Source of the DNA: Raillietiella orientalis
Taxonomy: Eukaryota
Direction of reading: 5' to 3'
Assembly (NCBI GenBank): GCA_036172245.1
Contig: JAYWIR010000032.1
Span: 186,001 to 250,000 of the forward strand
DNA: 64,000 bases
Part shown: piece after piece, positions 17,501-57,712 of the stretch
How positions within the stretch are numbered: the stretch's first letter is position 1
Layout of the letters: the number at the start of each line of letters is the position of its first letter
The notes under the pieces: model-generated
What the model saw: the letters and a program-made list of their open reading frames with translations, nothing else
The model's database searches: none
What the model was told of the DNA's origin: nothing
Made by a program: the position numbers and the translations under genes

Positions 17501-17512
17501 GGCGGCGGGTTG
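17501..17512. repeat. Middle copy of a triplicated 12-bp target-site duplication
   Basis: GGCGGCGGGTTG at 17501-17512 and 19143-19154; one-mismatch copy at 11910-11921. Confidence 0.9.
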
Positions 17513-22981: not shown

Positions 22982-24133
22982 ACGACGACGCTGCATTCTT
23001 CAATTATCGCGCTACCCTGTTCTTTCATTTTTTGTTGGTAGGCGATTTTTTTCTCCAACCTACTCTCGTTTCATTTTTTGACAGTTCCGACTTGCACCCA
23101 GGCAGCTAACCGGTTTCCTCAACTTTTTCGGCGTTGATCGACGGGGTCTCGGGTGCGGCCTATGCCTTGGACGCGAGTGGCACAGCCTTCGCGCCCGCTT
23201 TCGCCGCCAGCCTTTTCTGCAGCAGGTGGGCAGGTTTTTTAAGGTTTCTCTTGGAAACGACGCGCGCACCGGCTTTCGGGCACACCTCCCTCGTGTTACC
23301 CATTGTATTGCATACTTGGCACTGCACGTGTATACACCGCTTTTGGAGGTAGCCCGAGGTATTGCAGAAGCCGCAGTATTTCGGCTTCCCCACATAGCAT
23401 AGGTCGACGGTTTCGCCATCGACCACCAGTTTGTGGGGAAGAGTGCAGCCCTCCCGAATGGTCAAGCGTGCAGCCGTGAAACCGTGCTGCAGCTCCGTGT
23501 AGTCCTCAAAGGGACTAACCTTCGACCACTGCGCGTGGACCGTTCCATATTCTTCCAATGTGGCGCGAACCTGTTGTTTCCGCATCCGCGCGGTGACGCC
23601 CAATAGGTGGATCATTATGCTGCGGTCCCCCGTAAAGGGGAGGAGCCTGCGCGTCTTCATCACCACAGGGGTTTTAAGCAGTCGTTGGGCCTGCTCTGCT
23701 TGTTTGCAGATGACCTCAACGTACTGACCCCCGCTGCGGATGGTCATAGCGCTGAGCTCCTCCTCTTTCACATCGAGAGCGCGCATCCCCTTTGAGAAGG
23801 CGCGCGCGCTCTTTGAAGAATATAGATTGCCTACCTTGTAGAACAATGAGGGTTTATACCCCCTTTCCGCATAGGTCATCAATTCCGCCGCGGCTGCAGG
23901 CGATGGCGCCAACACAACGGCGCTCCACTCTCGCGCTGCAGCGGGGACCGATTCTGTCGGGGCGGATACCTCCACCTCCATCGCCTCTGGGGGCGACGTT
24001 TCCGCCCCCCCCTGGCCATCCCTGGTGGTCGCGTCAGGCATCGCTGCCTGATCGACCATCGAAACACACGACGCTTGCACTGGAATAGACTTCCTGGCAC
24101 GAGGATCACCGAGAAAACACGTCCTCCCTCGAG
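22982..24133 (-). mobile_element. Element J: 5' end + ORF1 (MPDATTRDG subfamily), broken by H
   Basis: 5' end CTCGAGGGAGGACGTGTTTT; ATG at 24041; CGFCNTSGYLQKRC. Confidence 0.9.
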
Positions 24134-27111
24134 CGATAAAGCATTCTTCTGCGTCAAACAGGAACTCCTCTTGGAGCACCTGGAGAGTCTTGGGTTTCCG
24201 AACAGACTTCTCCTGTACTTGCGCTCCTGCTGGCGTGACGGGCTTATCAACTTGCTTTTCAGTGGTTCCCGAGTTTACAGCGTGGCAAGGCGCAGAGGCA
24301 TAAGACAGAGAGACAGCTTAAGGCCGTTGCTATTCAGCTTCTAGTTTGAGTTGGTGCTGAAAGCTTACAGGCTGACGCTGGCCTTCCTTCCCAGCGCCTC
24401 TCCGTGTACTCCGTCCGTGACAGCATACGCCGACTACCTTCTGCCTATCTTGCTCATGTCCACTCCACTCGGTCGAAGACTTTTTCGAGCTGATCCGTCG
24501 TTGTGCGGGCATGAAAGTTAACAAAGCGAAGTGCTCCGTCGTGCCGGTGGGTACGTCGAGGGAGGTGCAGGCCGACTGGATCCTCCTGGGGATCTCCACG
24601 GTCAGGTACTTCAACTACTTTGACTTCTTGTTGGGCGACTTCTGCTCGTCTGAATAGTGGTCGGACTGTCTTCAAAAGGCATAGATTGCTTTAGGCCCGT
24701 TCCTTAAAGGCAAGTTCATCTTGCCGGAAAGGGCGTGCATATGGAACACTTTTCTTGCCTCCCTCCTCCGCCAATTATTTTTTGTTTGCTTGCCTCCCTA
24801 TGTGGTTAAACTCCGGGCGCAGCGTCTCCTACGTAAGGTCTTGTGGGGCGCTGCACGATCCAGGGTTCGCCTTAAAGATTTGGTGGCGCCATGCCAGGAC
24901 GCAGGCCTGGGCATTCTGACCATCCAGAAGATTGGACTGCAAGTGCAGTTCCGGCTTCTATCCCTATGTGGGAAATTGTGGTCTAGTCACTGGTGTGCTC
25001 CGGCTTGCCATATCCTCCAGCGCAGTGTGGGCAGTGCAGGACTGCTTTCGTTGCTGCTGCGCAACCTTCGCCGGAGAACTGGATTTGGCTACCCACTGAG
25101 GCATTTGTCCTCGTTGTTGTTAGCCCATTCCTAAATTTCCTGTTGCCTCTCCAACTGGAATGCTTGGCAGCAGGAAGCTCTGGAGCAGTGAATTTTCAAT
25201 TTGGATGTGCGTCCAGAGCAGCCGCGATTCCTAAAGGGTTTATTACGGAAACCGCTAGGAATGATCCTAGAGGTCTGGTCGCTTTGGTCCCGGGTTGCCA
25301 TCTCACCGATTGCCGCAGCGCTGTCTGCTCTCAGGGCAAACAACGACAGTAGCCAACCGGCAAGGTGGAAGTTCTTCTGTAGCATTGCAGGAGTCGCAAG
25401 ACTGCTGAGCGGCTGCAATACAAGCGTATTGGTAGAAGCTGCCACTCCTCGTTACCCGGCAAAGGGACTCCTTCGGTGGAGTGAGGTTGTTGGACTACTT
25501 CCCGAAGATCTCGTGGTCCCTTCCTTGTGTGTGTACACCTCCGTGTTCCCGCTTCGATAGAAACAGGATGTTCTGCTTTTTCTGCACTGGGGATTTTAGA
25601 GAAATAAGCGCAGATATTTGGTTTCCTGGGAAGTCGCCTCCCCGAACTGCATCAGGTGCGGGGCGATAGGATCGAGTTCAGTGACATGCGGGAGTTATGG
25701 GGGAGACTTGCTTCGGCACTTTGTCGTCCCCAGGACACTGTTATCGACCTGCTGCGACGCTTGTTCAGCGAAGACGGACTGAATAAATGCCCTGTGTTCG
25801 CAACAATCTGTTGCATCCACGTCATCGTAACGGCCCGCCGTTAGCTAATTTTCCCCGAGTCCCACAAGGGGTGGGGTAAATTTACTTTTCTATAAAAATA
25901 ACATTCACACTACACTTTTACATTCACACTCTCATTCACTCGTTATATCACCACTTTTCACTTTGAAGTCCTGGGGTTCACTCGAGTTCTGCTATCAGGG
26001 TGGGGGTCCAGATGTTTGTCCCCGGCGTCGTCCTCGATCCTCTTCAGGATGAATCTGTACGTCCAGGCTTGGATTCTTCCGCAGTTCCTGATGCCGATTT
26101 CCTTCTTCAGGAGTCCTTGGAGGTTCTCCATCGGAGGTGCGGCTCTCCTGGCTTTCCTCATCTTCCACCACCGCACAAGTATGGCAGTGATGAAGAGGGC
26201 GATGGTCGTCCTCACCATGGGATTGTAACAGGGAACATTACCATCTCCCTGAAACATCCCGGCGAGGATCTCCATTACGGAGCTGGTGGTCCGTCCGATG
26301 ATCCTTTTCAGGATCAGCCAGTCGTGAAGCAGTGTGGGACACGTCAAGATGTGGAGTGTTGTGTCGGTGTCACCACACGCCGTGCAGTCTCTGTCTTCCC
26401 TTCTTCTCGTGAAGTGCTGTAGTCTGGACCCCGTCAGGATTCCTCCATGGTAGAACATCAGGAGGTTGTCCTGGGTGTCCGGCGGAAGGTCACTCCTCCA
26501 GAGCGTCGTGCCGATCGCCAACAGGTTGATCCGGTCACTCCCGTAGCGATCGGCGGCTTCTTGGAGGGCACTGGTGTCGCGGTCCTCTTCTTTAATCAAT
26601 CTTCGGAGGTTCATTCTGGTTACCCTAGACCAGGCGAAGTCGTTGTGGTTGATCCACACCTCGCGGGTCTGGTGGGTAAACCTCCCTAGCATCATCTCTA
26701 TGTACCGGAGTACATGCGAGTGATGTTAGCTACAAGGAAGTTTTCAGCGAATGGACGCTGCCAGGATAGCCGCGAACCTTATGAAGGTAGCTGTCACGTG
26801 GCCTCATCTGCCGAGAAAATTCTCGAGGGATGTCGCCATCGTCAGATAGCGCTTCTAAGAAGGTGAGGAACGTTTAATGCCAGAGATCCCTGACCTCACC
26901 TTCCACTGTTTTTTTGTTTGTTCTCTTATGTTTTTTTTATTTTGTGCCCCGCTCCTTCCGTTATTTTCTTTTCAAAGGCGACCTGCGTGCCGGTGATCCT
27001 TTCGGGCTGAACTTTCTGTGTGGGCCATTCTTGTGTCGTGAAAGGATGAATTTCCTTTCAAGATTGTTGTTTGTTTTTACAAATAAACGTTGCAGCGCAG
27101 CCAGGATTAAA
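24134..27111 (+). mobile_element. Element K: decayed 3' part of family-1 LINE, interrupted by L
   Basis: Begins at DKAFFCV (RT motif), YADY, KGLLRWSE; resumes after L with WPHL; AATAAA 27082-27087. Confidence 0.87.
25848..26724 (-). mobile_element. Element L: 5'-truncated family-2 LINE with 8-bp TSD GTTAGCTA
   Basis: Open 245-aa ORF2 C-terminus with CTACGDTDTTLHILTC, homologous to Y1; TSD at 25840-25847 and 26725-26732. Confidence 0.9.
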
Positions 27112-27123
27112 CCGCATCGGCGC

Positions 27124-28680
27124 CTACCACGGACGGATGTGCTTTTCTGTCGCTCCGCGGTAGACTGACTTCTGTGTGTTTTTGTTCTGCTCTGCTTCTG
27201 TGCTGCAATGGGAGCAAAGAAGATCATCAGCTGTAAGAAGGGAACGGTACCTGCTCCTGAGATGGCGGTATCGGCAGCTAGCAAGGAGCCACAATCTTCG
27301 CCGACGGCGAGGACATTCAACCAGGTCGCTGCACTCGCGGCTGCGATGGGACCTTCGCTTGACAGCCCTGAGATTCAAGCGTATGTAGCAAATGGCTACC
27401 AGCAACAAGCATTGCGGCTTCGTAAGGAGATGTCCAGTCTTCAGGACCTGCCTTGCTCTGTCGTGACCACTCGCAGGACAAGGCGAGAAACCTGTGCTCA
27501 CCTTTCCAGCCTCAATGCAGGAAGTCGCCTCTTTTTGTCGATTCAGAGTAACCTGTTGGAACGTTAACGCGCTGCGCAGGTACGAAAAGAGGCGCGCCGT
27601 GCCAGACACTATGCATTATTTGGCCATGGGGATCCTGCAGGAGATGCATTACATCTTCGATGCGGAGGTTGCCGAAATCGAACAGCGCGCGGGTGGCACC
27701 CTGTGCTGACAAGAAGATTCTGCTTAATCGTGCGGAGTCAGGTTTCTCGTAAATAGAAGGACGGCAGGAGCTTTGCGCAGCGTTCGATTCGATTAGGAAA
27801 GGCGAATGGTCCAACTTGCACTGAAGTGGTCAGATTCAATCGAACTAGTCGTGACGAACGTCCACGTGCCGAGCGGCTTTCATCGGCGAGACTAAAGAAT
27901 CGAGTTCTTCGACGTGCTGGAAAGCCAATGGTTCAGGAACCTTGGAGCCAGAGTGGCGAATCTCGTCGCAGGGGACTTAAACGTCCACCTGCTTTCCAAC
28001 GAGACGAGGTCCCTGGCGAAATGGTTGCGGGTGGAAAAGGCATACGCGTCGGTGCACGCGCGTAACCCGGAAGCCGGCGAACCTAGAAGGGGAAAAAAGC
28101 GTGGATCACGTCTACCTCGATGAACACCTACTCTCACGAGTGGGAAGGAGAGGCAGGGTGCCGTCCACGTTATCGGACAATGATAGGCTGGAGTTCGAGC
28201 TACTCCCGCCGGGCAAGGAACCTCCGAACTATGTTTGGAGGATGCCGGCGGATTGGCTCAGTCATACGGAGGCGGCGGAGCGATTTCGCCAGTTTGTCCG
28301 GGGCTTTGCTATCCGGCAACTCGCAGACTGGTACCATCTTGAAAGATTGGTTCGCGAGTTTCGCTACCGTTTCCCCCAACACCTGTTACCGCGCGGATTC
28401 TGGAAAGGCGTGGTCAATAGCAAAGAACTCCTGCGGGCGCGCACCTTCTTTGGACGTGCGAAAGTCCGGCACCTCGCAGAGTACCAGGCGAGGTCCGAGC
28501 GCCAGTTCCGGCAGTCTAGAGCGGCTATTCTGCTCAACGACCAAGGCCAGGAATGCATGGCTTCTATCGACGTACGGCGAGCACTAAGACGTCACTTCTC
28601 CTTCCTCTAAGCAAAGTCCCCAACGGAGAGAGTCCTTTCGAAACTTCTACTGCCTATCCGTGATGCCCTTCTTCGACCTC
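27124..28680 (+). mobile_element. Element M: decayed family-1 5' part (most of ORF1 deleted, EN + linker)
   Basis: 5' motif GACGGATGTGCTTTT; CWNVNALR, LQEMH, AGDLN, DHVYLD, RRALRRHFS. Confidence 0.8.
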
Positions 28681-30579
28681 AGAGGATTTTCTAGGCCTAT
28701 AGAGCCTCGCAACTGAGGAATGCGAAAGAGGTCCGATGTGATGCGAATGTCTGGCTGTGAGGGTTTCTTTTCCAGGACGTTGACCTCGCCTACGGGCTGT
28801 ACGTCCAGCTGGTCCTGAACTCTTCCAAAACCCAGTTGTAGCCATCTTGCTTTGCTCTCACCGCAGGCAAATCCCTAGCGCAACCTGCGGAAAGGAGACA
28901 GTCCAAGGGAAGGGTGGGAGAGATGCGCTAGCCCCCTCCCGTGTGGGCTACCAAATCCTCGACCGCATCACTAACTAAAAATAAGGACCACGGACGATTC
29001 CCTCATGCATTTGTTTGGTTCCCTAAGAAACGGCAAAGAGTCCATGGTCTCTTATTCCCGTTCTAGCAAGTTGGCCGCGAAGAAAAGATTGCGTGGACTC
29101 CTATGAGTTACCGTCGCTTGGTAAGCAAGAGGAAACGAAACTGTGGAAATTGATTCCTTTTCGGTTTTCGAGATTCTTATCCTTGAGGAACAACTTGTTG
29201 TGCCACACTAAAAGGGTATGTCTTGGCAATTGAAGGTCCTTCGTACGATACTGCAAAGAATGCACTGGTAAATGCGGAAAGAGAAAGAGGAATAGTCTCG
29301 CAGTGTCTGTGGGGTGTCGCAGACAATAAAAGGAGTTCATAGGGCTGAAAACTGAAATGAAAATCCGAAGGTATCCGATTCACAGAGGAGCATGACCGCT
29401 TCCGATGGATCTTTAAGCCTCAAATGCAACCAACTCTTGACGTTTTTGCAAGGCGTGGACAATCCACCATTCCATGAGGAGTTGCTCCTCTGCCTTCATC
29501 CGAGTTTATCGTTGACCTGGGTTGCATTTTTGATTACTGTTGCTTCGAACCGTTCGTTCGTTCTCCCTTGCTTAGCCGGTCAAATAAAGCCAAGCAGCCA
29601 GATAGACGAGTGGATCTTCAGTTTCCCTCTTTTTCATTTCTTCCACGATACTTTCTTTTCCTTTTTGGAACCTTACGGCCTGGTTGCATATCACTTTGCA
29701 ATAGGCTCATTTAGCTGCACGCTACGAGTCCCATCGGCCGTTTTTTCTACCTTTTCAGTAGATCACCGGAAACAGTCAGTGCTGTCCATCCTTGCAATCA
29801 CCAGTTGCAGAGGCCGAACTGCATTGGGGATCCCCTCGCGTTTTAGAGTGCGCTCTTCGAGCCACATTGCTTGCGACTAATCTCTCCGTGGCCTTTTCTG
29901 GAAGTAACTTGTCTGGAAAAGAGACAATCTGCTTCCGGAGAATAGAGCAGCACCTGCAACGGAAGCTCGATCTAACTTTGGCAAAGGCATCACAAAAGCA
30001 TCAGCAGTCATTTTATTAATACCGAGAAATTCACAATCACTTCTCTTCCGAACTCGGAGGACTCCTTACGAGAAGAAAACTCTGAGGTGCTTGTTGTTCT
30101 CTGATCTCTCCCAGCATCCTTCACACTGCACTTATATCTTGCCCTTAACAATAGTCGTAAGCCTTACTGGTATTTCGGAAAACGGAACCACTTTGCTCCT
30201 TGAGGTTGTTAAAGAGACGACCACAACGTCCTTTCCGAAAACACGAAAAGAAGGTGAATGGAACACTCATATCTCAGCAACACTCGGATGTGCACGTTGA
30301 AAAAACTCTCAAGGAAGAATACACAGGATCTTGGGGAGAATCGTTTTGAATCTTGACATTTCTGCTCTTCCATCCACAGCTTTTCAAAATCTTGGTCCGT
30401 TACTTAAATGCAATGACCCTTCCGATCGTTCCATTATGTCTCTCGAGAGCGTTGCATGCTGATGCTGGATCTCTTCTTTCTCCAAGTAATCGGCAAGACT
30501 CCTTTTTATGTGAAGTTCCTATGATGCCTTGTCGTTATCTGAGTCCCAAGCGCCAATGGCTTCTACAAAAATTGCTTGT

Positions 30580-32759: not shown

Positions 32760-33250
32760 TCACTGTGCCGCAAAAAGGCCCGCTGTGTACGGAGGAGCAT
32801 CTCAGTCAAGTTTTGCGTGGCGCCCTCAGCCGCAGTTCTTACAGGATGCAGGGGTTTCGCAAGGAGTACCTTCGCAAACAATTGGACCGCGTCGCACCTG
32901 TAGCATTTTGGGCTATCGCACCCACAGTAAACGGAAAGTGGTAAGCGGTTTGCCTACAAGTGGCCCCAGAGCAGGAAGATGAGCGCGGCAGAAAGTGCAA
33001 GGATTACGAGTTCTGCGGGGGAAACGCTCGAAATTTTCCTCCAACGAAGCCGTCCGCTGGTCTGTGACCGTGATGTGGAACGCTCGTCCTACAGCCAACT
33101 TGGAGTTTGGTGACTCCTTCAAGGGTGGCAGAAAACATTCACCCTGCAGGCTGGCAGCCGTCGTCGCTTGTTCCGAGGGCAAACATGCTGTGGCAAACGA
33201 CGTGGCTGCTTCTCCACACCACTTTCTGGAGTTCTGAAGCATCATTTTCA
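32760..33250 (-). mobile_element. Element O: probable ORF1 relic
   Basis: Minus-strand ATQNLTEMLLRTQRAFLRH resembles AAEELAAML...KKALRRP of other ORF1s; the match is weak. Confidence 0.4.
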
Positions 33251-41775: not shown

Positions 41776-42080
41776 TGGCCACCACCATCATTAGTGTCAT
41801 GCGTGGAATCGCCTCTTGCCGGAAGTTACGCATAGCCTGTTGAAATGTTAACGGGCTGAGTAGCGAAGGCAAGAGGCTTAGCGCGTCCAGCACCATGCGA
41901 CCATTCGAAATTGCACTTCTCCAAGAGGTACACGCTCTCCGAGGAGAGGATGTCCAGGAGATCGAGGGGCTCACAGGGGGGAGGCTACTTTGGCGATCAG
42001 GTGGAGACCACTCCCGCGGAGTGCCCTTACTTCTTAAGCCAGCCGTCGCTAATGCGCTGCGCACTGTACAGTTCGACGAT
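41776..42080 (+). mobile_element. Element P: EN N-terminal fragment
   Basis: MRGIASCRKLRIAC*NVNGL...LLQEVH...VQFDD. Confidence 0.85.
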
Positions 42081-42468
42081 GCCATCTGGATACGCCGGGC
42101 AGTTTGTTAAAACTTTCGTAAGGTCAACAACATACGTGGTACCAGGCCCCACTAACGGCCACGCAACAACGGAGCTGACGGGACTCCTAGACGTAGCCAG
42201 GTGTGACTCCCCTCGGCAGTGGAGGATAATGAGGATGAAAACAATAATAAACAAAAAAAGTAAGAAAACAAAACAAAAATAGTTTGGAGAAACGGGAAGG
42301 GATCGCATTCCACTTCGCGAAAAGCCCATCCTCTGCAGCATGCCCTCAAGGACCTCCTCCACTCGACCCAACCAGGGCCATCCGGTAGCTCTCCGCATAA
42401 AGCGTACTGCATCCTGGATGACGTCCCTCTCATAATGACGATTTTCTCGGTAGCGCCTTAGGAGGCGG
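42081..42468 (-). mobile_element. Element Q: 3' terminal fragment, apparently with a large internal deletion
   Basis: VRRLLRRY (pre-RT) joined directly to C-terminal DAVRFMRRATGWPWLG; T-rich UTR; degenerate AACAAA + CCCGG-CGTAT-CCAGA end. Confidence 0.78.
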
Positions 42469-43109
42469 CGAACGGCGGACGCAATTGTTGTGCGCTCCAT
42501 GGATCAGAAGTTTTTTGTTCGGAGTTTTGTGTGTGTTTCGCGGACTTTCACAGGCAGAAATGCCTGTGAACGCCGCAGTTTCAGGTGAGGGAGGCGGGAA
42601 GACCGCGTCTCCCAAGCCAAAGGAGGTGGGATCACGCCCCACCACTACTTCTCAACCTTCCCTCGCCACAACGGCGAGGGCTTGGAGCGCGGTGGAAGCG
42701 GCGGAAACGCCCAATGTCGCCACCGAAATACAATCCTACATCCAGGAGGGCAAGAATCCGGCCCTCATGTACAAGGTAGGAAACCTATGTTCTTCGTTAA
42801 CGGCGCGAAAGTTCGACAATGCCATCAAAAACATGGGCATTGCCGACCATGAAATTCTTTGAATCTCAATACGAAGAGGAGGGCAGTTGACGGAGCTCAT
42901 CTGCAAGGATGCAGCTCTTACTCACAAAATGCTTTGTACGCCCGTACAATTTGAGGGCAGGAATTTACTCCCCCACACGGTGGACCACTCCATTGTGGTT
43001 TACCTTACCGGGACAACAGTGCGAATGGATGAGAACGCCATCCGCGCTGAGCTTGAAAAATTCGCTAGCGTTTTCGCGATGTGGCGAAAGCCCAACAGCT
43101 TCGGAATGA
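42469..43109 (+). mobile_element. Element R: 5' end + ORF1 N-terminus (E subfamily), broken by T
   Basis: GGCGGACGCA 5' motif, ATG at 42560, MGIADHEIL shared with E. Confidence 0.88.
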
Positions 43110-45221
43110 TTTCCAGCCGGGTAATCCCGGGGCGTTTATTGGAAAAACATTCTACAAATGCGGTACCAGGCTTTACCAACGGCCACACAACAACGGACCT
43201 GCCGGGACGCCGGGACGCCTCCCGACGTGGCTCTCCTCGGCAGTGGAAGGGATGGGGGAGAAAACAAAAGGAAAAATAAAAAGTAAGGAAAACAAAAAGA
43301 AGTTGGAGAACTGGGAAGGGATCAATCTGCACTGGGAGGGGGGCCCATCCTTCGAAGGGAGCCCTTTAAGTCCATTCGAGTGGTACCCAGCTGGGGCCAT
43401 CCATAAGCTCTCGTCAGGAAGCGAACAGCATACGGGATGACGTCACTCTCGTTCTGGTCCACATCTTTGTCGCGTATATCACTCCACGCAGCCACGTTGC
43501 CACGGATGCAGCATAATGCTGCCACGGCTGCAGCTGGCTGCAGGGCGTCCCGCACGAAGAGGAGCCGGAGAACATCTCTGGGCGCGCTGCCCGTAGGGAG
43601 CCCTAGGTTCGTCCTAAACCGTTCCCACAGTGGTCGGAGGGCAGCACAGTCAACCAGAAGGTGGGGGAGCGATTCCCTCTCCACACACCGGGAACACTCA
43701 AAATTCACTCTTCCCCGGGTCCAGTGGAAGCAGCGCGCGTTGCAGGGCAGGCCCCAATGCAACGTCAGGAGCGCCGACTCTTGCCACTTAAGGAAGAGAA
43801 TCCTGGCTCCAATTAATACCGGAAGCCACTTCATGTCATCCATCGGGATGCCGAGCAGCTCACACCATCTTGCAAGTCCTCGCGGGAGGGCACTTGGGGT
43901 CGTAACATCCGCCAGTTCTCCCTTGGTCCAACCGTTTAACAATTTCTCTCGTTCTGAGATCCGGCAGGAGATTTGCCACTTCGGCGTCCCACCGCTGGTA
44001 AGAGTTCAAAACAAAAAGGGCAGCGCCGTAGCTAAAGGGGTGGTCTCCGCCCACGTGCTTCTGGCGGGACACAGCAAAGTGGACCGCAGAGTGCAGCAGG
44101 GGTTACTGCCGAATCGCAGGCGGTTCCAGTTTTCCTCTGTAGTGTTGTTCAACTTTGCCCACGTTCCAACGGTTTCCTCCAACCAGGTGGAGTAGATGGC
44201 GGGGCTGCAAACTATCCAACCGTTATCTCTCACCAAAGCTTCCATGCGTCCGAGGAGGAGGCCGCATCTTCTAACCTTCCGACCGCGGCACCGAAGATAG
44301 GACGCGAGCCCTTGGGAACCAAAAACACGGCTGGCAAGAAGGCAAGCCGAAACCCACTAGGGGGTAATCCACAACTTCGCTGCGAGGGCCAAAGTGCGCC
44401 ATCGCAGCTGGATCTCCAAGCGCTTTAGCGTCAGGAGGCCGAGACCGCCGTCCCGACGGGGAGCGCTTAAGTCTTTCAAGTTCACTCGTGGTCATCCGCT
44501 GCCCCAAAGGGCAATAAAGAGGAGGTCCTTGGTCTGTCTTTTCGACAAAGTAGGGACTAGGCAAACAAAAGATAGGGGGCGCAGGATGGGGGCCACGAAT
44601 GCGTTCCAAACCACGGCATGTTCAGGCAGAAGGAACTTGCCTTCCAGAAACGGGCTGAACGCCAGCTCTACCTTTTGGAGACGATCTGACCAGGCTTCTC
44701 CTAAGCAGAAGTCCCTCAACGGGCACCAAAATACTTCAGGCACGTGGCCTTGGGGATCCCCAAGCGGCTCTAGTCAGGCCGTCTTACCCACGTCGCACCA
44801 ATCGCTACCATCGACGACTTCGCCTTGTTAACACGCAGTCCAGTCCCGCGGCTTAGCAGATCGAAGAAATCCTCGACTGCGGCTGCCAGGCAGGACATGG
44901 GCAACATCAGCAGAAGATCGTCGGCGTATTCTGCAGCAGTGGACGTGCAGCGGCATGAGCAAGGCAAGGCAGCCAAAGTCACCCTGTACAATCTCAGCAT
45001 TAACTCAAAGTAGGTGCTAAAGAGCAGGGGAATAAGGCTATCGCCCTGCCGTATGCCTAGTCGCACCGGCACGCCATACGCTGTGCTTCCACTGTAATGA
45101 ACATTCATCAACGCGCAGCACCAGCATGAGCGCAGGTAGGAGGAAAAGGAGGGTAAGAAGCCCATGCGACCCAGCAGCTCCAGCAGGAGATCCTGGTCTA
45201 CGCACTCGAACGCCTTGCGTA
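43110..45221 (-). mobile_element. Element T: 3' part of family-1 LINE (A-like)
   Basis: Begins at RKAFECVDQ, YADD, CSRC...HLLVDC; 3' end AATAAA + CCGGG-ATTA-CCCGG at 43110-43140. Confidence 0.9.
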
Positions 45222-47160
45222 CTCCAAGGTGGACGTGTTTTCTCGGTGCTCCTCGTGCCACGAAGTCCTCCCCAGTGCAAGCGTCGTGTGGTTCGGTGGT
45301 CGATCAGGCAGCGATGCCTGACGCGACGACCAGGGATGCCCAGGGGGTAACGGCAACGCCGCCCCCAGAGGCGATATAGAGCCAGGGGGTGGCGGCAACG
45401 TCGCCCCCAGAGGCGATAGAGGTGGGGGCATCCGCCCCCATAAAATCGGTCTTCGCATCAGCGCGGGCGTGGAGCGCCGTTGTGTCGGCGCCATCGCCTA
45501 CAGCCGCGGCGGAATTGTCGGCCTATGTAGAGAAGGGGTACCACCCCTCATTGTTCTGCAAGGTAGGCAATTTATATTCTTTAGAGAGCGCGCGCGCCTT
45601 TTCGAAGGGCATGCGCGCTCTCGATGTGAAAGAAGAGGAGCTCAGCGCTATGACCATCCGCAGCGAGGGTCAGTACGTTGAGGTCATCTGCAAAGAAGAA
45701 TAGCTTGCCCAAGGACTGCTTAAAACCCCCGTGGTGATGAAGACGCGCAGGCTCCTCCCTGTTACGGAGGACCGCAGCACGGTGGTCCACCTTTTAGGCG
45801 TTACCGCGCTAATGCGCAAAGAACAGGTTCGCGCCGCTCTAGAACAGTTTGGAAGGGTCCACGCGCACAGGACGAAAGTTAGTCCCTTTGAGGACTACAC
45901 GAGGCTGCAACACGGCCTCACGGCTACGCGCGATGCACGCGTGACCGTTTGGGAGCACTCCACTCTTCCCCACAAACTGGTGGTCGAAGGCGAAACCGTC
46001 GACCTGTGGTATGTGGAGAAGCCGAAATAATGCGGCTTCTGCAATACGTCAAACCACCTCAAAAAGAGGTGTCCCAATGTGCAGTGTCAAGTATGCGGAA
46101 CCATGAGACACACGAGGGAGGTGTGCCCTAAAGGAGCAGTGCGGGTGGTTTCCAACAGAAAGCGTAAAAAGCGCGCCCGGCTTCTGCAGAAAAGGCTGGC
46201 GGCGAAAGCTGCCGCGAAGGCTGTGATACCCGCGCCCAAGACCCAGGCCGAACCTGAGACCCCGGCGACCAACGCCGAAAAAGTTGAGGGGGCCGGATAG
46301 GAGACTGGGTGGCAAGTGGCAACGGCCAAAAAATCAAAGAAGCAGAAGAGGATGGAAAAACAAATCGCCTACCAACAGAAGAAGATAGAGCAGGGTAGCG
46401 CGATAATTAAAGAGTGCAGCGTTGTCGTCGAACGCGTTCCCGATGTTGCCGAACGCTGCCAGAAAGAACTAGCCACTACCTACGACCTCCCCTCTGTTGA
46501 CTCTGTAAACAGCGTGGGGAGCGAGCCAGCGGCGGCGTCCGTCATTGACAATACCATCGATGACGTAGCCTTCGCGTGAGCCGCGGAGGAACTGGCTGAC
46601 TCGTTGCAGCCAGAACCCTCCAAGGCTGGCAAGAAAGCGTTACGGCGTCGGGCCTCCCCTACGGAGTCCCCCACTACCAATCCCGAGATGGAGGCCGGAA
46701 GCTCAGCCTCCGTTTCCAGGGCACCCCGCAAGAAGGCTGGACGTAAGTCCACAAAGCCGATGAAGTCCATCTCCCCTGTCGAGGGGAAAGAGATGGCTTC
46801 CGCAAGCGAGGGTGCCATGAGCGTGGGAAACTCGCGGGACCCGTCGCCCGAGAGAATCCCACGCGCGGACACTGAGAGGATGGAGGGGGTGGACGCCGAA
46901 CAGGTGCCTCAGGTGCCTGAGAAGGCCGGAACCCCCATGGGCATACAACCCGCCTCGCAAGAGGCGGGTTTTCCCACACCTTAATCTTCCCAGCAGTAAT
47001 GCCGGGAATCTCCTTCCGCCGTGGTCTGCACATCGCCGTTTGGAACGTGAACGGCATGGCAGACGCCGGCAGGAGACGAGACATGGCCGCCTTCTCGAGT
47101 CCTACGACCTTGCGCTGCTGCAAGAGATCCACGTGATATCTGCAGAACAAGCGCAAGAGA
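45222..47160 (+). mobile_element. Element U: 5' part (J subfamily ORF1 45314-46984 with stops, start of EN), broken by V
   Basis: 5' end CTCCAAGGTGGACGTGTTTT; two knuckles; TAATG at 46997-47001; WNVNG. Confidence 0.9.
45339..45420 (+). repeat. Tandem duplication of ~42 bp in U ORF1
   Basis: CCAGGGGGT..CGGCAACG.CGCCCCCAGAGGCGATA occurs twice; a diverged version is in X, and J has a single copy. Confidence 0.8.
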
Positions 47161-50281: not shown

Positions 50282-53200
50282 CTCGAGCATACGGGTTTTT
50301 CTTTCGCTCTTGAGCGTTTATTTTTTTATTTTTTTTCTTGGCCTGCCAGTGGATTCGTTGGTGGCTAGGCAGCAATGCCTGGGACCACCACCAATGTTAA
50401 GGAGGGGGCGACTTCTATGTTCCCTCCTGAATCAATGGATGTTCGGTCAACCGACTTAACAGAAGCGTCTCCCTCGCTAGGGAGAAGCTGGAGTTCCGTG
50501 GCTGCGGCGCCAATGCAAGCGGCTGCGGTAGAGTTGAAAGCCTAGTTGGAGGAGGGGCACAATCCCCCTCTACACTACAAGGTAGGCAACCTTTACTCCT
50601 TTGAGAGTGCACGCGCTTTCTCGAAAGTACTCCCTCAAAGTACCACAGGAGGAGCTCTTGGAGATGACCATCAGGAGTGGTGGACAGTACGTTGAGGTGA
50701 TTTGCAAAGAAGCAAGTCTTGCCCAGCGTCTGCTCCGTACACCTGTTCCTTTAGGCAATTGCCGGCTCCTCTTCATCACGGAGGATAGATCTATCGTGAT
50801 CCACCTCCAAGGAATTACCTTCCGGATAGATGAAGAGGCTGTCCGAAAGGAACTAGTTAAATTTGGAACTGTCCACGCTTTGTGGAAAAGGCCGACTCCG
50901 TTTTGGGAGTACGATCTCCTGAATTGCGGTATGGCTTCCGCGCGCATGACCGTCCGCGAGGGTTGCTCCCTACCTAACAAGCTGGAGGTCAACGGCGAAC
51001 CCGTTGACATCTCGAATGTCGGTAAGCCGCCTTTCTGCGGGCATTGCAGCACTTCAGGTCACCTGAAAAAAAGGTGCCGTCACTTGCAGTGCAAGCAATG
51101 CAAGCAACCCGGGCACACTCTTTCAGTGTGCCCGCAAAATGAACTCCGCGTCGCATCCGCACGGAATGCGAAGAAGCGCGCGGCGAGAAAAAGACGAGTT
51201 CAGGCAGCCCGAGAGAGAGCCGCCGCTTGAAACACAACTATCGTGCTCCAGGTGAAGGTCAGCTCCGAGATCATGGAAAACTCGGACAAGGTCGAGGAGA
51301 ACGGCCCGGAACCTGGATGGCAGGTAGTAAAATCCAAGAGGCAGCAAAGCCTCAAGGAAGAAAAAAAAAATGTCGCCAAACGCAGCGAGAATTTGCCGCG
51401 TCGCGAAAAGATCAAACGCTGATCTGTCGTCATCAAGCGCATTCCTGCGTTCGAACAGAGCGGCAAAATTGCACTCGCCGCTGCCTACTTTCACCCTCCA
51501 GCAAATTAATCCCGGAGGCTATCGACCCGGCGGTAACGTCCGTCGTCGAACGCATGCTCGACGACGTCGCCTTTGAGCGAGCGCCGGAGGAGCTCGCTGC
51601 GTCCTTGCAGCGTCCCCTGAAATCCGCGAAAAAGCCTTAAAGCGTCCGACGTCGATCAAGAAGTCGGAGATTACGAACTCTGACGCGGAGGCGGAAAACA
51701 CAGCCTCCGGCATCGCGGCCTCCCGCCCGAAGGCCAATCGCACGAAGAAGGCTACCCGCAAAATTATCCCGTCCGTGGAAAAGGGAGAGATAATTGAGGG
51801 AAACGAGCGTGCCAATAAAGTGGGGAACTCCGGGGACTCTCCTCGAGAGGTAACCTCACGCTGCGACCCCGGAGGGAGGGAAAGGGTAGAGTCTGTGCCT
51901 TAGGTGCTCCAAGTGCCTGAGATTGCCGCAGTCCCCTTACTCGTCCCTCCTACCTGTCCGTTGACAGGTGCTGCAACGGCACGTTCCCAGCCTTAATGCC
52001 GAAAATCGCCTCTTGCCGCCGTCTGCGAATTGCCTGTTGGAACGTCAACGGGCTAAGCGACGACGGCAAGAGACGAGACGTGGCCTCCACCCTGTCATCG
52101 TTCGACCTGGTGCTGCTCCAAGAGATCCACGTGATCTCCGCAGACCAAGCAACGGAGATCGAGCGTATCTCGGGTGGACGGCTGATGTTGCGTAGCGGCA
52201 CCGTTGAATCTTGCGGTGTCGCGTTTTTGCTTCGGCCAGCTGTCGAGGTCGTGGCAAACGGCGTACGGTTCGATAGTGCCGGTCGCGTCGGGCAGTTGAC
52301 CATCAGGTGGTCCGACTCCATCGTTCTGGTCATTACGAACGTGTACGCCCCAAGCGGCAGCGACGCGCTAAGGGCAAAGGCAAGGAGAGATTACTTCCTT
52401 ACCCTGAGGCGCGAATATCTGGACGAAGCGGGAGTGCGCAAAGCGAACCTAATCGCAGGTGACTTTAACCTGCGACTGCTGTCAGGTGCATCTGACACAC
52501 TTCGGGACCGCGTGAACGAGCTGTGCGCAGAGATGCAGACGCGCAACTTGCTCGCGGGAGATCCGGAAATGGCCGACAGCATTGATCACGTGTTTCTTCA
52601 CCAGCACCTATGCTCACGCGTGGGCAGGCGCGGCAAGTTACCGTCGGAACTTTCGGAGCATGACACGATCGTACTCGAGGTGCGCCCACGCGACAGGGTT
52701 CCGCCGTCATCTGCGTGGCGCTTACCGGGGGACTGGCTGAAACTGCCGGAAGTCGCGGAGCATCTTCGCGGATTCATACGAGGTTTCAGCTTGCAGACGC
52801 TTCAGAACTGGTACCGCTTCAAGCGCTCGGTCCGGAATTTTTCGGACGAGTCCCCTATGAATCTCCTGCCTGCCGGATTTGGTGAAAGCGTGCGTAATGA
52901 GAGATGGGAATTACAATCTCGATGTTACGCGCGAACACTAGACGTACGCAGGCTAGCCAAATACCATGCGGGAACCGAGAGGCAGGCGTGGCAATCCGGG
53001 TCGGCCAGCTTACTGGACGACCAGGGTTCGGAGTACTCGGCCCCCGCCCAGTCAAAAGGCTTATTAAAAAAATTCTACTCCTCTCTGTACGCGTGCTCCA
53101 CCGGAACGAGATGTCTTGCGATTTCTTCTTCCAAAAGGCGCTCCGGCGATCGGGGAGGAAGATAGAAAGACCCTCGACGAGCCTTTCACGATGGGCGAGA

Positions 53201-55788
53201 TCATCTCGGCCATCGGAAAGCTCAAGAGGCGGAAGGCTCCAGGGCAGGACGGCCTGCCAGCGGAATTTTTTTAATGTTTCGCGGCAGAGCTAACTCCTCT
53301 GGTGAAGAAACTCACCTTGCTGATCCGCGAAACGGGCGACGTCCACGCCTCGTTTCGTTCGGCAAAGGTGCGTCTCCTGCCTAAGGGTGGAGACCTTCGG
53401 AGCATGAGCAACTGCGGCCGATTACCGTGTTGAACGCGGACGCCAAGTTGCTGGCAAAATTGTGGGCTGAACGCCTGGGGCGGTTAGCGGAAAGCTTCAT
53501 TAGCCCGGAGCAGACATATGCTGTTCCCGGGCGGAGCATGGATGCCAACCTGTTCCTCGCCAGCACATTTTTCGCGCTCCAACAGGAAAGGGTCAGGATG
53601 GGCAACCGGCCTTCCGGAATGTCCGCCGCTAGGAAACAGGTTGGTTGGGGGGAGGGCGCCCTCGCAGTCGCAGTCGATTTGCATAAAGCATTCGACTGTT
53701 TCGACCAGAGGTTCCTCCTGGAGCTCCTGGAACGCTTGGGCTTCCCGGTCTCTTTGCTGACCTACTTGCGATCCTGCTGGCGCGACGCGCTCATCCAGAT
53801 CTTTTTCAGCGGACACACCGTGCACGACGTACCAATGCGACGCGGCATACGGCAGGGAGACATCCTCAGTCCCTTGCTCTTCAGTACCTACTTCGAGTTG
53901 GTACTGAGAGCGTACAGGGACACTCTAGCGCACCTGCCGCGCGACTATCCCGGTACGCCCGCGGTGTCAGCATATGCGGACGACCTACTGCTGCTGCTTC
54001 CTATGTCCACGTCGGCATCGGCGGTCGAGGAGTTCTTCGATCTGCTAAGTCGGAGAACCCGGTTTGAGGTGAACAGGGCGAAGTCGTCCGTCATGCCAAT
54101 CGGTGCGGCGTGGGCAGGGCAGCCGGACTGGGTGCGTTTGTAGGTCCCCACGGTACGGTACTTCAAGTACCTCGGTGTACCGGTAGGTGATTATCTCCCT
54201 TCGGATGCATGGTCCAGCTGCCATCAGAAGGTAGAGACGGCGATCGGTCCGTTCCAAGGCCGCAGGTTTTTCCTGCCGGAACGGGCCGCGGTGTGGAACG
54301 CATTCGCGGCCCTTCTCCTCTGTTCCCTGCTTTTTGTTTGTCCCCCCACCACAGAAAATAAAAAGCGGACGAAGGACCTCCTAAGGATTGCCCTTTGGGG
54401 TAATGGGAGGGCCCGAGTCCGGCTTGAAGACTTGAGCGCTCCCCGTCAAGACGGCGGTCTCGGCCTCCTGACGCTAGAGCGGCTTGAGCTTTAGCTCTAG
54501 TTTCGGTTACTCGCCCTAGTGGCGAAACATTGGAGTAGCAGTTGCTGCGAGCCCGCACGTCTCCTCGTCGAACAGGCTACAGGCAAGGTGGGACTGTCAT
54601 CCTTCCTTGCGCTCCGTCAACGCCGCCAAGTCGGTCACTGCGGGTTGCACCTACGAAGAGTCGCTGACCTGATGTGGAAGAACGCAGGATGGTTCTGCTG
54701 TCGCCCCGTTAACGGACCTGCACGACTGCAGGAAACGGTTCAGACGTGGGCGAGGAGAACCAGCAACGCAACCAAGAAGGGCAGAGACAATTCTTCGCCC
54801 GTAATGACCACCTGACGCTCCGGGAGGTCCTGAAGAACCCCCCAAAACGAGCGTGGGCAAGAAAAACTTCCCTCGCTGCAATGCTGTTTCCGCTCGCGAA
54901 ACATTTAAACGGCAACACTGCTGCGAAATGGGATGTTTTCGTCAAAATCTTTGGTACGGAGAAAAAGATCGGGGAATGGAAAATGGCAATTCTCTGCGAT
55001 ACCGCGACCCGGACTATCACCTTTATTGGAGTATTGCGCTGGAGCGAGCTGCTAAATGTTCCGCATGAACAATTAAAGTGGTCCCCGGTGCTGATGAACG
55101 CCTCCACCCTTCCCTTCAAATGGCAGGAGACGGCGCTATTGTTGCTGCATTGGAGACTCCCCTGCAACGCCGCCCGACACCATTGGACCTTGGAAACAGT
55201 GAGCTCTAATTGTGCGAGGTGTGGAGCACGGCAGTCCCTCACTCACGTCTTTTTGGATTGTGTGGCTCTTCGGCCCCTTGGGTTCCGCTTCGCCGCGGCC
55301 ATCGGAATCCCTTTCGGCATTTCCAGGGACGTTCTGAAAGCCCTATTCGTTGCCGACGCCCTTCGGCCGGCGGCCTCGTTAGCAGCCCTGTGCTGCTTTC
55401 GCGGGATCGTCGCCGCCTGGAGAAAGGCTACGGGAGGATCACACGACCAGGATGCCATCCAGCCAGGCTCACAGTTCCTGAGGAGGGCGTCCCGATGGCC
55501 ATACCTGGATCCAGGAATACAGAAGAAGCTTGCCGGCATCAAGCAAAGGATGCAACGGCCCCACCAGCAACTGTGATTCCTTCCCTTACCCTCCCAACTT
55601 TCCTTTTCTTTTTTGTTTTGTTTTTTGTTTTTTCCTTCTACCCCCTGCTGCCGTGGTAACCGTACCGGTATGCGAAGCGGTGACCCGGCAAGCTCCGAAT
55701 TTCTTGGTGGCTGGTGCAATTGTCCAGCTACGGCACGTCTTTGTAAATGTCCATTGCAATAAACGCCCTGGAGAAATCCGGGTGAAAA
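50282..55788 (+). mobile_element. Element W: full-length, disrupted family-1 LINE (ORF1 ~50375-51996, ORF2 51996-55576)
   Basis: Degenerate 5' motif, knuckles CGHC...C and CKQC...C, complete EN, RT with YADD, Zn finger, AATAAA 55758-55763 with hairpin. Confidence 0.93.
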
Positions 55789-55804
55789 TCGAACGCCTCA
55801 TGCG

Positions 55805-57712
55805 CTCGAAGTCGGATATGTTTTCTCGGTGCTTCTCGTGCCAAGAAGTCTCCCCTGTGCAAGCGTCGTGCAGTTCGGTTGTCGATCAGGCAGCGATGCC
55901 TGACGCGACGACCAGGGATGGCCAGCAGGCAGCGGCAACGCCAACCGCAGTGGCGATGGAGATCCAGGGGGCGGCGGCGACGTTGCTCTCAGAAGCGGAG
56001 GTGGGGGCATCCTCCCCCACAGAATCGGTCCCCGCTTCAGCGCGGGCGTGGAGCACCGTTGTGTCGGCGCCAACGCCTGCAGCCGCGGCGGAATTGTCGG
56101 CCTATGTGGAGAAGGGGGATAACCCGTCATTGTTCTACAAGGTAGGCAATCTATATTCTTTAGAGAGCGCGCGCGCCTTTTCGAAGGGAATGCGCGCTCT
56201 CGATGTGAAAAAGGAGGAGCTCAGCGCTATGACCATCCGCATCGGGGGTCAGGACGTTGAGGTCATCTGCAAAGAAGAATAGCTGGCCCAACGACTGCTT
56301 AAAACCCCCGTTGTGTTGGAAACGCGCAGGCTCCTCCCTATTACGGCGGACCGCAGCATGGTGTTGCACCTTTTAGGCGTTACCGCGCTAATGCGCAAAG
56401 AACAGGTTCGCGCCGCTCTAGAACAGTTTGAAAGGGTCCACGCGCACAGGACGAAAGTTAGTCCCTTTGAGGACTACACGAGGCTGCAACACGGCCTCAC
56501 GGCTACGCGCGATGCGCGCGTGACCGTTTCGGAGCACTCCACTCTTCCCCACAAACTAATGGTCGAAGGCGAAACCGTCGACCTGTGGTATGTGGGGAAG
56601 CCGAAATACTGCGGCTTCTGCAATACGTCAAACCACCTCAAAAAGAGGTGTCCCAATGTGCAGTGTCAAGTATGCGGAACCATGAGACACACAAGGGAGG
56701 TGTGCCCTAAAGGAGTAGTGCGGGTGGTTTCCAACAGAAAGCGTAAAAAGCGCGCCCGGCTTCTGCAGAAAAGGCTGGCGGCGAAAGCTGCCGCGAAGGC
56801 TGTGATACCCGCCCCCAAGACCCGGGCTGCACCCGAGACCCCGGCGACCAACGCCGAAAAAGTTGAGGGGGCCGGATAGGAGACTGGGTGGCAAGTGGCA
56901 ACGGCCAAAAAATCAAAGAAGCAGAAGAGGATGGAAAAACAAATCGCCTACCAACAGAAGAAGATAGAGCAGGGTAGCGCGATAATTAAAGAGTGCAGCG
57001 TTGTCGTCGAACGCGTTCCCGATGTTGCCGAATGCTGCCAGAAAGAACTCGCCGCTACCGACGACCTTCCCTCTGTTGACTCTGTCTACAGCGAGGGGAG
57101 CGATCCAGCGGCGGCGTCCGTCATCGACACCACCATCGATGACGTAGCCTTCGCGCGAGCCGCGGAGTAGCCGGCTGCCTCGTTGCAGCCAGAACCCTGA
57201 GAGGATGGCAAGAAGGCCGTAATTCGTCCGGCCTCCCCTCAGGAGTACTCCACTTCCGACCCAGAACTGGAGGTTGGAAGCGCAGCCTTTGTTTCCACGG
57301 CACCTTGCAAGAAGGCTGGACGTAAGCCCACAAAGCCGAGGAAGCTCGTCTCCTCCGTCAAAGGGAAAGAGATGCCTACCGCAAGCGAGTGTGCTTTGAG
57401 CGTGGGAAACTTGCGGGACCCGTTGCCCTAGAGACTCCCACGCGCGGACACGGAGGGGATGGAGTGAGTAGAAGCCGAACAGGTGCCGCAGGTGCCTGAG
57501 AAGGCTAAAACACCCATGGACATCATGTTCGCCTCGCAAGAGGCGGGCTTCCCCACACCTTAATCTTCCCAGCAGTAATGCCGGGAATCTCTTCCCACCA
57601 TCGTTTGCACATCGCCGTTTAGAACGTGAACGGCATGACAGACACCGGCAGGAGAAGAGACATAGCCGCCCTTCTGAAGTCCTACGACCTTGTGCTGCTG
57701 CAGGAGATTCAC
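55805..57712 (+). mobile_element. Element X: close copy of U (5' end, ORF1, EN start)
   Basis: 5' end CTCGAAGTCGGATATGTTTT; ORF1 near-identical to U, including stops; TAATG at 57576-57580. Confidence 0.9.

Follow-up and report, generated by a model that had tools for sequence, protein, structure and literature searches.

Why do three copies of one LINE subfamily begin at the same point of the reverse transcriptase (RT) gene of other LINEs, in the opposite orientation? The window analysed here, a stretch of 64 kb from the genome of Raillietiella orientalis, contains two deep stacks of LINEs nested in one another. Among these elements are the three copies of the MPDATTRDG LINE, J (5' end at 24133, minus strand), U (5' end at 45222) and X (5' end at 55805), and each of them starts directly against antisense codons of RT motif A. 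The region is almost pure diverged repeat, with a GC content of 55-65%. The three copies and the sequences that flank their 5' ends are as follows.

22983..24133, minus strand: J, the 5' 1151 nt of an MPDATTRDG LINE (5'UTR and ORF1), interrupted at 22982/22983, where LINE-A has its 3' end
24134..25878, plus strand: K, a host LINE of clade II, kept from the codon before K-A-F of motif A onward (right end approximate)
43110..45221, minus strand: T, a host LINE of clade I, kept from its 3' end (43110) to motif A and 80% identical to copy A
45222..47160, plus strand: U, the 5'UTR, ORF1 and start of the endonuclease of an MPDATTRDG LINE, cut by the 3' end of LB
55789..55804, minus strand: a 16-nt motif A remnant (H-E-A-F-D codons) that separates the 3' end of W from the start of X
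55805..57713, plus strand: X, the third MPDATTRDG copy, which breaks off at 57713, where an unrelated LINE on the minus strand adjoins it

All three junctions divide D-L-(H/R/D)-K-A-F-D at one point, after the Leu codon and before that for H/R/D. On the strand of J, the flank 24134-24146, in reverse complement, precedes CTCGAG, U is preceded by GAACGCCTTGCGTA (45208-45221) and continues with CTCCAA from 45222, and X is preceded by GAACGCCTCATGCG (55791-55804) and continues with CTCGAA from 55805; the junction strings given in the earlier note are thus borne out, with boundaries correct to 1-2 nt. Read in the sense of the RT, the flanks give ..C GAT AAA GCA TTC (D K A F) in K, ..CGC AAG GCG TTC GAG (R K A F E) in T and ..CAT GAG GCG TTC GAT (H E A F D) beside X, and all align with the V-D-L-(H/R/C/D)-K-A-F-D of six uninterrupted copies. 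If the element is taken to start with (C)GCTCGAG, as in copy W, all three hosts stop exactly at the H/R/D codon. In the flanks K and T the RT proper continues beyond the junction (PF00078; tblastn map). A string of 21 nt from the 5'UTR and start codon of the insert occurs in exactly three exact copies in the window (0 expected), and a search of the whole 64 kb at up to 3 mismatches gave no further site; among metagenome contigs it matched 3 loci, all of them unrelated GC-rich bacterial sequences otherwise without similarity to the window. Two further candidates were dropped: an extension of RT homology into the J/U/X 5'UTRs, of which the antisense translations show none, and a motif-A junction in a degenerate copy at 39800-40480, which runs unbroken through the motif.

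The hosts of J and U belong to different lineages. Over about 800 nt, K shares 61% identity with T, while T is 80% identical to copy A and K 72% to LB, and both A and LB are unbroken at the motif-A site. The inserts J and U are 80% identical, against the 61% of their hosts. Host lineage is visible from the first host codon, T being A-like and K LB-like, and the codon at the junction itself is GAT in K (as in its clade-mate LB), CGC in T and CAT in the flank of X; because this codon matches the host lineage, it is derived from the host and not from a shared leader. The view that J and U landed separately in hosts of different subfamilies is therefore upheld, the hosts falling in different LINE clades, and the descent of all the motif-A junctions from one duplicated ancestor, which would have undone it, is contradicted for J and U by the identities of hosts and inserts. 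J and U are independent insertions, with full-length 5' ends, of one subfamily into motif A of resident LINEs. The chance that two independent junctions in a 5.4-kb element would fall within 2 nt of each other in the same orientation is ~5e-4, and on this comparison landing at motif A is best read as sequence-directed, the shared position lying far beyond chance. The 3' ends of J, U and X lie outside the window, and the sharing of a site is thus read from their 5' junctions (3/3 at motif A); all our results are drawn from this one 64-kb window, with two certain events and one probable.

The probable event is that of X. LB and W, together with a piece elsewhere in the window that matches part of LINE-A, bear on its reading.

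20261..22982, plus strand: LINE-A, a LINE of clade II, its 3' end antisense in J, cut at site S3 by element H
42450..42486, minus strand: a piece of ORF2 (37 nt, antisense) that precedes copy C42
47161..50281, minus strand: LB, a LINE of clade II, its 3' end antisense in U, cut at site S1 by W
50282..55788, plus strand: W, a full-length reference LINE (ORF1 50586-51227, ORF2 51921-55573)

The RT-like part of the flank of X comprises 16 nt only, with the 3' end of W directly upstream: W is followed immediately by TCGAACGCC, with 16 nt between the two elements W and X. The identity of U to X is 90-93%, TCGAACGCCT is common to both, and their 16-nt flanks differ at 5/16 positions, a difference that is statistically not decisive. 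The suggestion of the earlier note that X may be a duplicate of U can accordingly be kept only in a broader form, in which X, to judge from these similarities, is probably either a third event or the descendant of one. W has its 5' end at S1 of LB and its 3' end against the 16 nt of S2 type, an arrangement that is impossible by simple insertion, and the right-hand halves of LB, U and T, expected to the right of W, are missing there. A short antisense-ORF2 piece also travels with the F8/C42 subfamily, so the 16 nt need not mark an insertion of X: the 37-nt piece of C42 matches LINE-A next to F8 (20261-20297) at 32/37 positions. The region concerned differs from one subfamily to another, and beyond the C42 piece, on its upstream side, the DNA is unrelated. 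Judged by these alignments, F8 and C42 do share a junction by descent. Other origins of the 16 nt were considered and dropped, namely site S1 (10/16 positions matching, as against up to 13/16 at motif A, by hand alignment) and LB (10/16, by hand alignment), as was the possibility that W is a chimera with a W-type 5' part and a J/U/X-type 3' part, since its sliding identity is without a change point.

Motif A (site S2) is not the only position at which junctions recur. Site S1 in ORF2 accounts for three junctions and site S5, in the R-F-D codons of the endonuclease, for two, each with independent hosts and inserts.

4961..7918, plus strand: F2, a LINE kept from S1 to its 3' end, which lies at S1 of F3 (7919 onward)
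10536..11142, plus strand: F4, a 3' fragment of a LINE, its 3' end (11142) at S5 of F5, which is part of H
42080..42440, minus strand: T2, a 3' fragment of a LINE, its 3' end (42080) at S5 of E41 (41784-42079)

At S1, the host parts of F2 and of LB both start with GCTCG, and F3 stops at CTCGA beside the 3' end of F2; the 5' end of copy A adjoins F2 at about 4960. At S5, the 3' ends of F4 and T2 fall at most 1 nt apart in the R-F-D codons of F5 and E41, and the independence of the two events is indicated by identities of 65% between F5 and E41, 73% between F5 and the uninterrupted F6, and 59% between the inserts F4 and T2. Five pairs of junctions lie within 3 nt of each other among the 15 catalogued junctions on the antisense side; in simulations with 15 random junctions, at least five pairs arose in 0/200,000 runs and at least three with P = 7e-4. 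TCGA(A/G) is present at S1, S2 and S5 on the insert-sense strand, and TCGA has a frequency of 0.0045 per nt. It follows the 3' end of the LINE directly at 2 of the 8 junctions read (W and F2), lies 3 nt downstream of the 3' junction of T2 and, decayed to TCAA, 2 nt downstream of that of F4, and is missing nearby at 4/8 3' junctions (T, LB, LINE-A, and F6/F7 counted as one). Taken together, the pattern looks like a short-motif preference for TCGA(A/G) that meets conserved codons and is used by several lineages. The break in K and the join of T2 and C42 do not establish a fourth hot spot towards the C-terminal end of ORF2, since their positions differ by roughly 20-250 nt.

We mapped 14 nested insertions of LINE into LINE in the window, of which 13, by our own count from the map, are antisense. 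The elements are about 5.5 kb long, many have complete 5' ends, and their tails consist of 3-7 A-rich nt after a stem-loop. One insertion, in sense orientation, is visible with both of its flanks.

11910..19153, minus strand: a tandem of two LINEs in element H, F7 (17512-19142, 5'-truncated) and F6 (11921-17500, full length)

The 11-bp string AACCCGCCKCC occurs three times, at both flanks of the pair (19143-19153 and 11910-11920) and between F7 and F6 (17501-17511), and F7/F6 in H is a complete tandem insertion with an 11-bp target duplication seen three times. When both halves of H were aligned with intact copies, F6 matched the downstream one and the other gave no match, so that the continuity of H is supported by the 11-bp repeats together with approximate distances.

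To which LINEs do these elements belong? The ORF2 of copy W matches an endonuclease (PF03372, E 3.3e-11) N-terminal to an RT (PF00078, E 1.7e-19), an order with which the tblastn map agrees. A zf-CCHC match occurs in copy F6 (21.2 bits, cut-off 20.8), the translated ORF1 of each of J, U, X and W displays Cys/His spacing, and zf-RVT scores 23.6 bits, under its cut-off of 27.5. The window elements are L1-like LINEs with an APE endonuclease, an RT, a putative zinc-binding tail and putative CCHC knuckles in ORF1. The ORF1 of J had no Pfam match and no homologue at E <= 1e-3 among proteins of 162-517 aa. In an RT tree of 25 rows, made up of 5 window copies and 20 of the 120 matches listed, the window copies form a clade of their own with the metagenome protein P0001 (100/100), and this clade groups weakly (71/76) with plant and fungal L1-like rows. 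Membership of the Tx1 clade, whose site specificity the earlier note had cited as a precedent, is not supported, as the tree separates the window LINEs from a TX1-named Danio protein, a non-curated sequence that is the sole stand-in for Tx1. With the window LINEs outside the group of that protein, the Tx1 precedent serves as an analogy only.

The reading that we prefer, and to which we would give a probability of about 0.62, is sequence-preferring, target-primed insertion into conserved coding motifs of resident LINEs. Under this model, target-primed reverse transcription would be carried out by an endonuclease with a short sequence preference, its first nick being predicted just 5' of TCGAAC, on the strand antisense to the Phe-Asp codons of the host, and its second at a distance of 16 bp downstream, where the Leu codon adjoins that for His/Arg/Asp. 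The latter cut would set the 5' junction to the nucleotide and leave a putative 16-bp target duplication, and specificity would probably come from the endonuclease and not from pairing between RNA and target. Purifying selection would preserve the codons of the motif in every LINE lineage, so that the landing pad would be present in all siblings and the pile would grow by self-nesting.

Two alternatives would have the motif-A codons arrive together with the insert. If the J/U/X RNA carried an antisense motif-A leader of ~16 nt, gained by 5' transduction from a parent inside an RT, insertion upstream in a host LINE could be followed by annealing of the cDNA end to motif A of the host and by deletion of the intervening DNA; X, which has the 16 nt without an RT host beyond, would be accommodated by such a history, the 37-nt piece of C42 (32/37 to the F8 flank) shows that leaders travel with elements here, and motif A is conserved enough across clades for annealing. 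We consider this unlikely given that the junction codons differ in J, U and X and fit the host, which makes the whole 16 nt host-derived in K and T, that W, a sister element, shares the 5' terminus but carries no leader, and that the recurrent 3' junctions at S1 and S5 would be left unexplained. It is very improbable that a single composite of antisense RT and element was spread by segmental duplication or gene conversion, even though one alignment crosses both junctions (22982-24789 against 46428-44561, 75.7%), U and X are alike at 90-93% and hold TCGAACGCCT in common, and F8 and C42 do have a junction common by descent. Under such a history the 61% of K and T would not be expected beside the 80% of J and U, nor would T be nearer to copy A (80%, unbroken at the site) than to K and A-like from its first host codon, and the flanks of X and U differ at 5/16 positions.

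The roles of host and insert might also be reversed, with K and T as the newcomers, their reverse transcription halted at motif A. Their cDNA would then have been attached head-to-head to the 5' end of a resident J or U, whether through twin priming with two RNAs or because the palindromic TCGA sequences paired. Twin priming yields a head-to-head geometry with both 3' ends outward, as observed here, the terminus of the element, (G)CTCGAG, has TCGA in common with GTCGAT, the V-D codons of the host, and the window lacks the other halves of K and T. The V-D-L codons of the host, absent in all three copies, would however be retained if the join were made at TCGA; K and T, from different clades, stop at the identical nucleotide; at every other level of the stack a later element would have to hit an earlier 5' junction exactly; and F7/F6 in H, the one insertion seen from both sides, has split its host in the ordinary way, with a duplication. 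We accordingly find this course of events improbable. Least credible of all is an assembly artefact, in which the joins would be chimeric contigs: the repeat density of the region, the odd neighbourhood of W and X and the missing right halves of the stack centred on W might raise such a suspicion, but the joined parts (5'UTR and antisense RT) are without mutual similarity, unlike places where repeats collapse, and three versions of the join are present, diverged from one another (80-93% identity) and with ordinary mutations to either side.

LINEs with specific targets insert into rRNA, snRNA and tRNA genes, microsatellites, telomeres and one DNA transposon, and Zepp-type LINEs pile into their own copies. 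In the limited literature that we searched, there is no description of LINEs that target the RT motif of other LINEs, and the texts consulted describe no sequence basis for self-targeting of the Zepp type. The rDNA-specific LINEs R1 and R2 occur as tandem copies with target units between them, and the window elements resemble them in that one site is reused and the target regenerated by duplication, the arrangements of F7, 11 bp and F6 and of W, 16 nt and X looking alike; R1 and R2, by contrast, target host RNA genes and the window elements other LINEs. The R1Bm endonuclease is reported to cut both strands specifically (PMC1919474). The Tx group belongs to the L1 clade, with Tx1L in the Tx1D transposon, Keno in U2 snRNA genes and Kibi and Koshi in microsatellites. 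The Tx group shares with the window LINEs an APE-type endonuclease and, to judge by the 5' junctions in the window, the use of one defined position in another multicopy sequence, and Tx1 itself targets another transposon (PMC4494074, PMC3747384); in both groups, 5' extensions reveal parent copies inside other elements. Unlike the Tx group, the window elements target the coding sequence of sibling LINEs, on the antisense strand and at several sites, the 5' side being seen for J, U and X. With Zepp and ZeppL, of the L1 clade in green algae, the window has clusters of LINE within LINE in common, a likeness of organisation. Zepp clusters are reported to be tandem arrays of mostly 3' ends with an (A)n tail (PMC3747384), whereas the window has alternating orientation (13/14 antisense), many complete 5' ends and tails of 3-7 A-rich nt after a stem-loop, and ZeppL exceeds 8 kb as against about 5.5 kb for the window elements.

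The earlier note had proposed that the subfamily targets a constrained RT motif and thereby inactivates competing LINEs. Recurrence at the motif has held up, but a dedicated weapon against RT has not, as there are at least three recurrent sites used by several lineages. Nor does inactivation as competition follow, since a copy is inactivated by an insertion anywhere in ORF2, and there is nothing to indicate activity of the hosts. A wider reading, which we put forward tentatively and do not favour, is that of a guild of LINEs that may recognise short ORF2 motifs locked by selection, above all the Phe-Asp codons (TTCGAC) in antisense, in RT motif A and in the endonuclease. If so, the catalytic codons of an active LINE would themselves be the landing pad for the next insertion, resident copies would be disabled as a by-product, and the result would be a self-renewing safe harbour leading to LINE islands of alternating orientation, possibly centromere-like as with Zepp. 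Should the pattern prove to be genome-wide, nicking at TCGA(A/G), opposite conserved ORF2 codons on the antisense strand, would provide a nucleotide-level rule for the growth of LINE-only islands, and these elements would exemplify how a mobile element can find a safe harbour in constrained coding sequence of its relatives.

We find that three LINE copies in the window, J, U and X, each begin directly downstream of antisense sequence for RT motif A, D-L-(H/R/D)-K-A-F-D (hereafter site S2). They have in common a 5'UTR, an ORF1 that opens with MPDATTRD, and a 21-nt start-codon string that occurs in the window only in these copies; U and X are 90-93% identical, and J is about 80% identical to either.

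5' junctions at motif A
24133, minus strand: 5' end of J
45222: 5' end of U
55805: 5' end of X

Read in RT sense, the flank is ..GAT AAA GCA TTC in K (the host of J), ..CGC AAG GCG TTC GAG in T (the host of U) and ..CAT GAG GCG TTC GAT beside X, while six uninterrupted copies read GTC GAT YTN (CAT/CGT/CAC/TGC/GAT) AAR GCN TTC GAC at this position. In each host the sequence breaks off at the H/R/D codon, no more than 1-2 nt from the position marked in the earlier note. Moreover, homologous 5' termini are present in the sister element W ((G)CTCGAG..) and in the further subfamily F6 (CCTGAGAGGG..), and the boundary of the J/U/X element is consequently well defined. The three junctions at motif A claimed previously are real and non-random, with strings, coordinates and host codons in agreement, and the reading with the best support, at a probability of about 0.6, is that insertion into a conserved motif of sibling LINEs is directed by sequence.

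A duplicated ancestral composite was considered for J and U, under which K and T should be no more diverged than J and U (20%) or than T and A. From motif A onward, identity over approximately 800 nt is only 61% between K and T, against 80% for T and A and 72% for K and LB (A and LB being uninterrupted at the site), so that this candidate was rejected on both comparisons, and the proposed INDEPENDENCE of the J and U events is borne out. The resemblance of T to A and of K to LB starts at the first host codon, and the GAT codon of K is found among the other copies in LB only. The codon at the junction is thus host-like in both K and T, evidence against a shared leader as the source of the 16 nt in J and U. 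For X the flank is RT-like for 16 nt only (55789-55804), with the complete 3' end of W directly upstream. The 16-nt flanks of X and U differ at 5 of 16 positions, which is suggestive of a third host for X but not proof, given that the elements themselves are only about 80% alike over their first 60 nt.

The bulk of the window, which is eukaryotic-looking with a GC content of 47-65%, consists of diverged LINE copies, and it is on this one window that all junction, host and site results rest. About 25 LINE fragments were mapped by tblastn using the reading frames of W as a ruler, and the copies form two groups (T, A, F2, F6 and W versus K, LB and LINE-A). ORF2 of W matches Exo_endo_phos endonuclease (E 3.3e-11) and RVT_1 (E 1.7e-19), with a weak match to zf-RVT. 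Recognisable LINE 3' ends consist of AATAAA, a GC-rich stem-loop (type CCCGG..CCGGG) and 3-7 A-rich nt; the absence of long poly(A) at these ends suggests that recognition may be by structure rather than by tail.

Reference copy and LINE 3' ends
50282-55788, plus strand: W, full-length LINE copy
50586-51227, plus strand: ORF1 of W
7889-7918, 11113-11142, 22952-22982, 55758-55788, plus strand: LINE 3' ends
47161-47191, 43110-43140, 42080-42108, 17512-17542, 11921-11951, minus strand: LINE 3' ends

A distant LINE family is also present on the minus strand (25880-26725 and 57714-62000), with protein 28-33% identical to W, copies 80% alike (26277-26712 versus 57711-58143) and an internal direct repeat (59412-60421 / 60452-61464, 73%); the 3' end of one copy seems to lie antisense in K at about 25878. 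Between the two LINE stacks is a lower-GC stretch (26000-40000, 47-53%) with few long reading frames.

When all junctions in the window are read, motif A is not unique as a junction site.

Other recurrent junction sites
W at about 52799-52806: S1, in ORF2, host sense GCTCGAGG followed across the junction by ACTGG
4960/4961, 7918/7919, 50281/50282: S1 junctions
W at about 52274: S5, endonuclease R-F-D codons
11142/11143, 42079/42080: S5 junctions

At S1, host sequence in both F2 and LB starts GCTCG, where it adjoins the 5' end of A and of W, respectively, and F3 stops at CTCGA beside the 3' end of F2; the stagger appears to be about 6 bp (TCGAGC). At S5, F4 and T2 have their 3' ends (11142 and 42080, respectively) at positions no more than 1 nt apart in the hosts F5 and E41. 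These hosts are 65% identical (73% for F5 and the uninterrupted F6) and the inserts 59%, identities which indicate that the two insertions are separate events. On the insert-sense strand S1 reads TCGAG(C/G), and S2 and S5 read TCGAAC, the antisense of Phe-Asp codons. Among eight 3' junctions read, TCGA follows immediately in two (W, F2) and 3 nt on in T2, a decayed TCAA lies 2 nt on in F4 where other copies have TCGA, and TCGA is absent at four (T, LB, LINE-A, F6/F7). Given 0.0045 TCGA per nt in the window, we calculate P ~3e-4 for three of eight junctions within 0-3 nt of it. When 15 junctions were placed at random over 5400 positions, at least three pairs within 3 nt arose with P = 7e-4 and at least five in 0 of 200,000 runs; five such pairs were observed, or three if X is not independent. 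The suggestion that landing on motif A serves to inactivate the RT of competing LINEs is not supported, since this motif is one of several recurrent sites.

Of the 14 nested insertions, we count 13 that lie antisense to the host; the exception is the pair F7 (5'-truncated) and F6 (full length), which are 95% identical and stand in tandem inside element H.

Element H, its insertion and the 37-nt pieces
19154-20260: F8, part of H
11143-11909: F5, part of H
19143-19153, minus strand: AACCCGCCKCC before F7
17501-17511, minus strand: AACCCGCCKCC between F7 and F6
11910-11920, minus strand: AACCCGCCKCC after F6
42450-42486: 37-nt antisense ORF2 piece of C42
20261-20297: 37-nt antisense ORF2 piece beside F8

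This 11-mer occurs exactly three times in the window (0.14 expected) and is a triplicated target duplication, produced either by reuse of one regenerated site or by a template jump of an RNA carrying its parent's target unit. On either origin, its three copies show that ordinary target-primed insertion, with duplication, splits host elements in this window. The 16-nt interval separating W from X starts TCGAAC, at the expected place for a 3' junction, and ends at the J/U/X 5'-junction position; it looks like one motif-A target unit, and by analogy with the 11-mer the motif-A site would receive two nicks 16 bp apart.

Alternatively, the 16 nt could be a travelling 5' leader of the kind carried by C42. 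F8 and C42 (89% identical) both bear the 37-nt piece ahead of the 5'UTR, identical at 32 of 37 positions, and the matching stretch differs strongly among all other subfamilies. At F8 it runs seamlessly into LINE-A, whereas at C42 it breaks off, followed by T2, an unrelated T-like 3' fragment; the best reading is therefore that C42 descends from an F8-like parent whose transcript began 37 nt upstream, and the piece is a likely 5' transduction from a parent inside a LINE-A-like host. Elements with parents residing in other transposons have been described with 5' extensions of this type (PMC4494074). However, a leader on X still needs a parent at motif A of an H-E-A-F-D-type host. Approximately 100 nt including the ORF1 start are lost in F8 and kept in C42.

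The left stack (A in F2 in F3 in F4 in H in LINE-A in J in K) can be read as a set of nested insertions, centred at the window's left edge, of which the right halves are present; the mirror halves would lie off-window. The right stack (W in LB in U in T in C42 in T2 in E41) has left halves only: W is followed on its right by the 16 nt, then X and an unrelated LINE, in place of the missing halves of LB, U and T. In this region (50282-57713), the 5' end of W lies at S1 of LB and its 3' end abuts the S2-type 16-nt unit and X. Deletion accompanying insertion, tandem or read-through RNA, later rearrangement or misassembly could each account for this arrangement.

Within the L1 clade, target-specific insertion is an established trait of the Tx group, and Tx1 itself lands in another transposon (PMC4494074, PMC3747384). 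Tx1 membership is unsupported by a 25-row RT tree, in which the window copies and P0001 form their own clade, apart from a TX1-named Danio protein and grouping weakly with plant and fungal L1-like rows. P0001, a 619-aa RT protein encoded on a JGI metagenome contig of 2870 bp, is 72% identical to the RT of W, and its position inside the window clade indicates that the same LINE group exists in an environmental sample. Zepp/ZeppL elements of green algae are described as targeting existing copies and building GC-rich LINE clusters at putative centromeres, and the accounts of their tandem arrays of 3' ends give no target sequence (PMC8226300, PMC3446292). While those clusters are described as tandem 3'-end arrays, the window holds nested LINE insertions, 13/14 of them antisense. 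None of the texts searched describes a LINE that targets the RT motif of other LINEs. In this single-window sample, landing at motif A represents one case of a wider habit of these LINEs.
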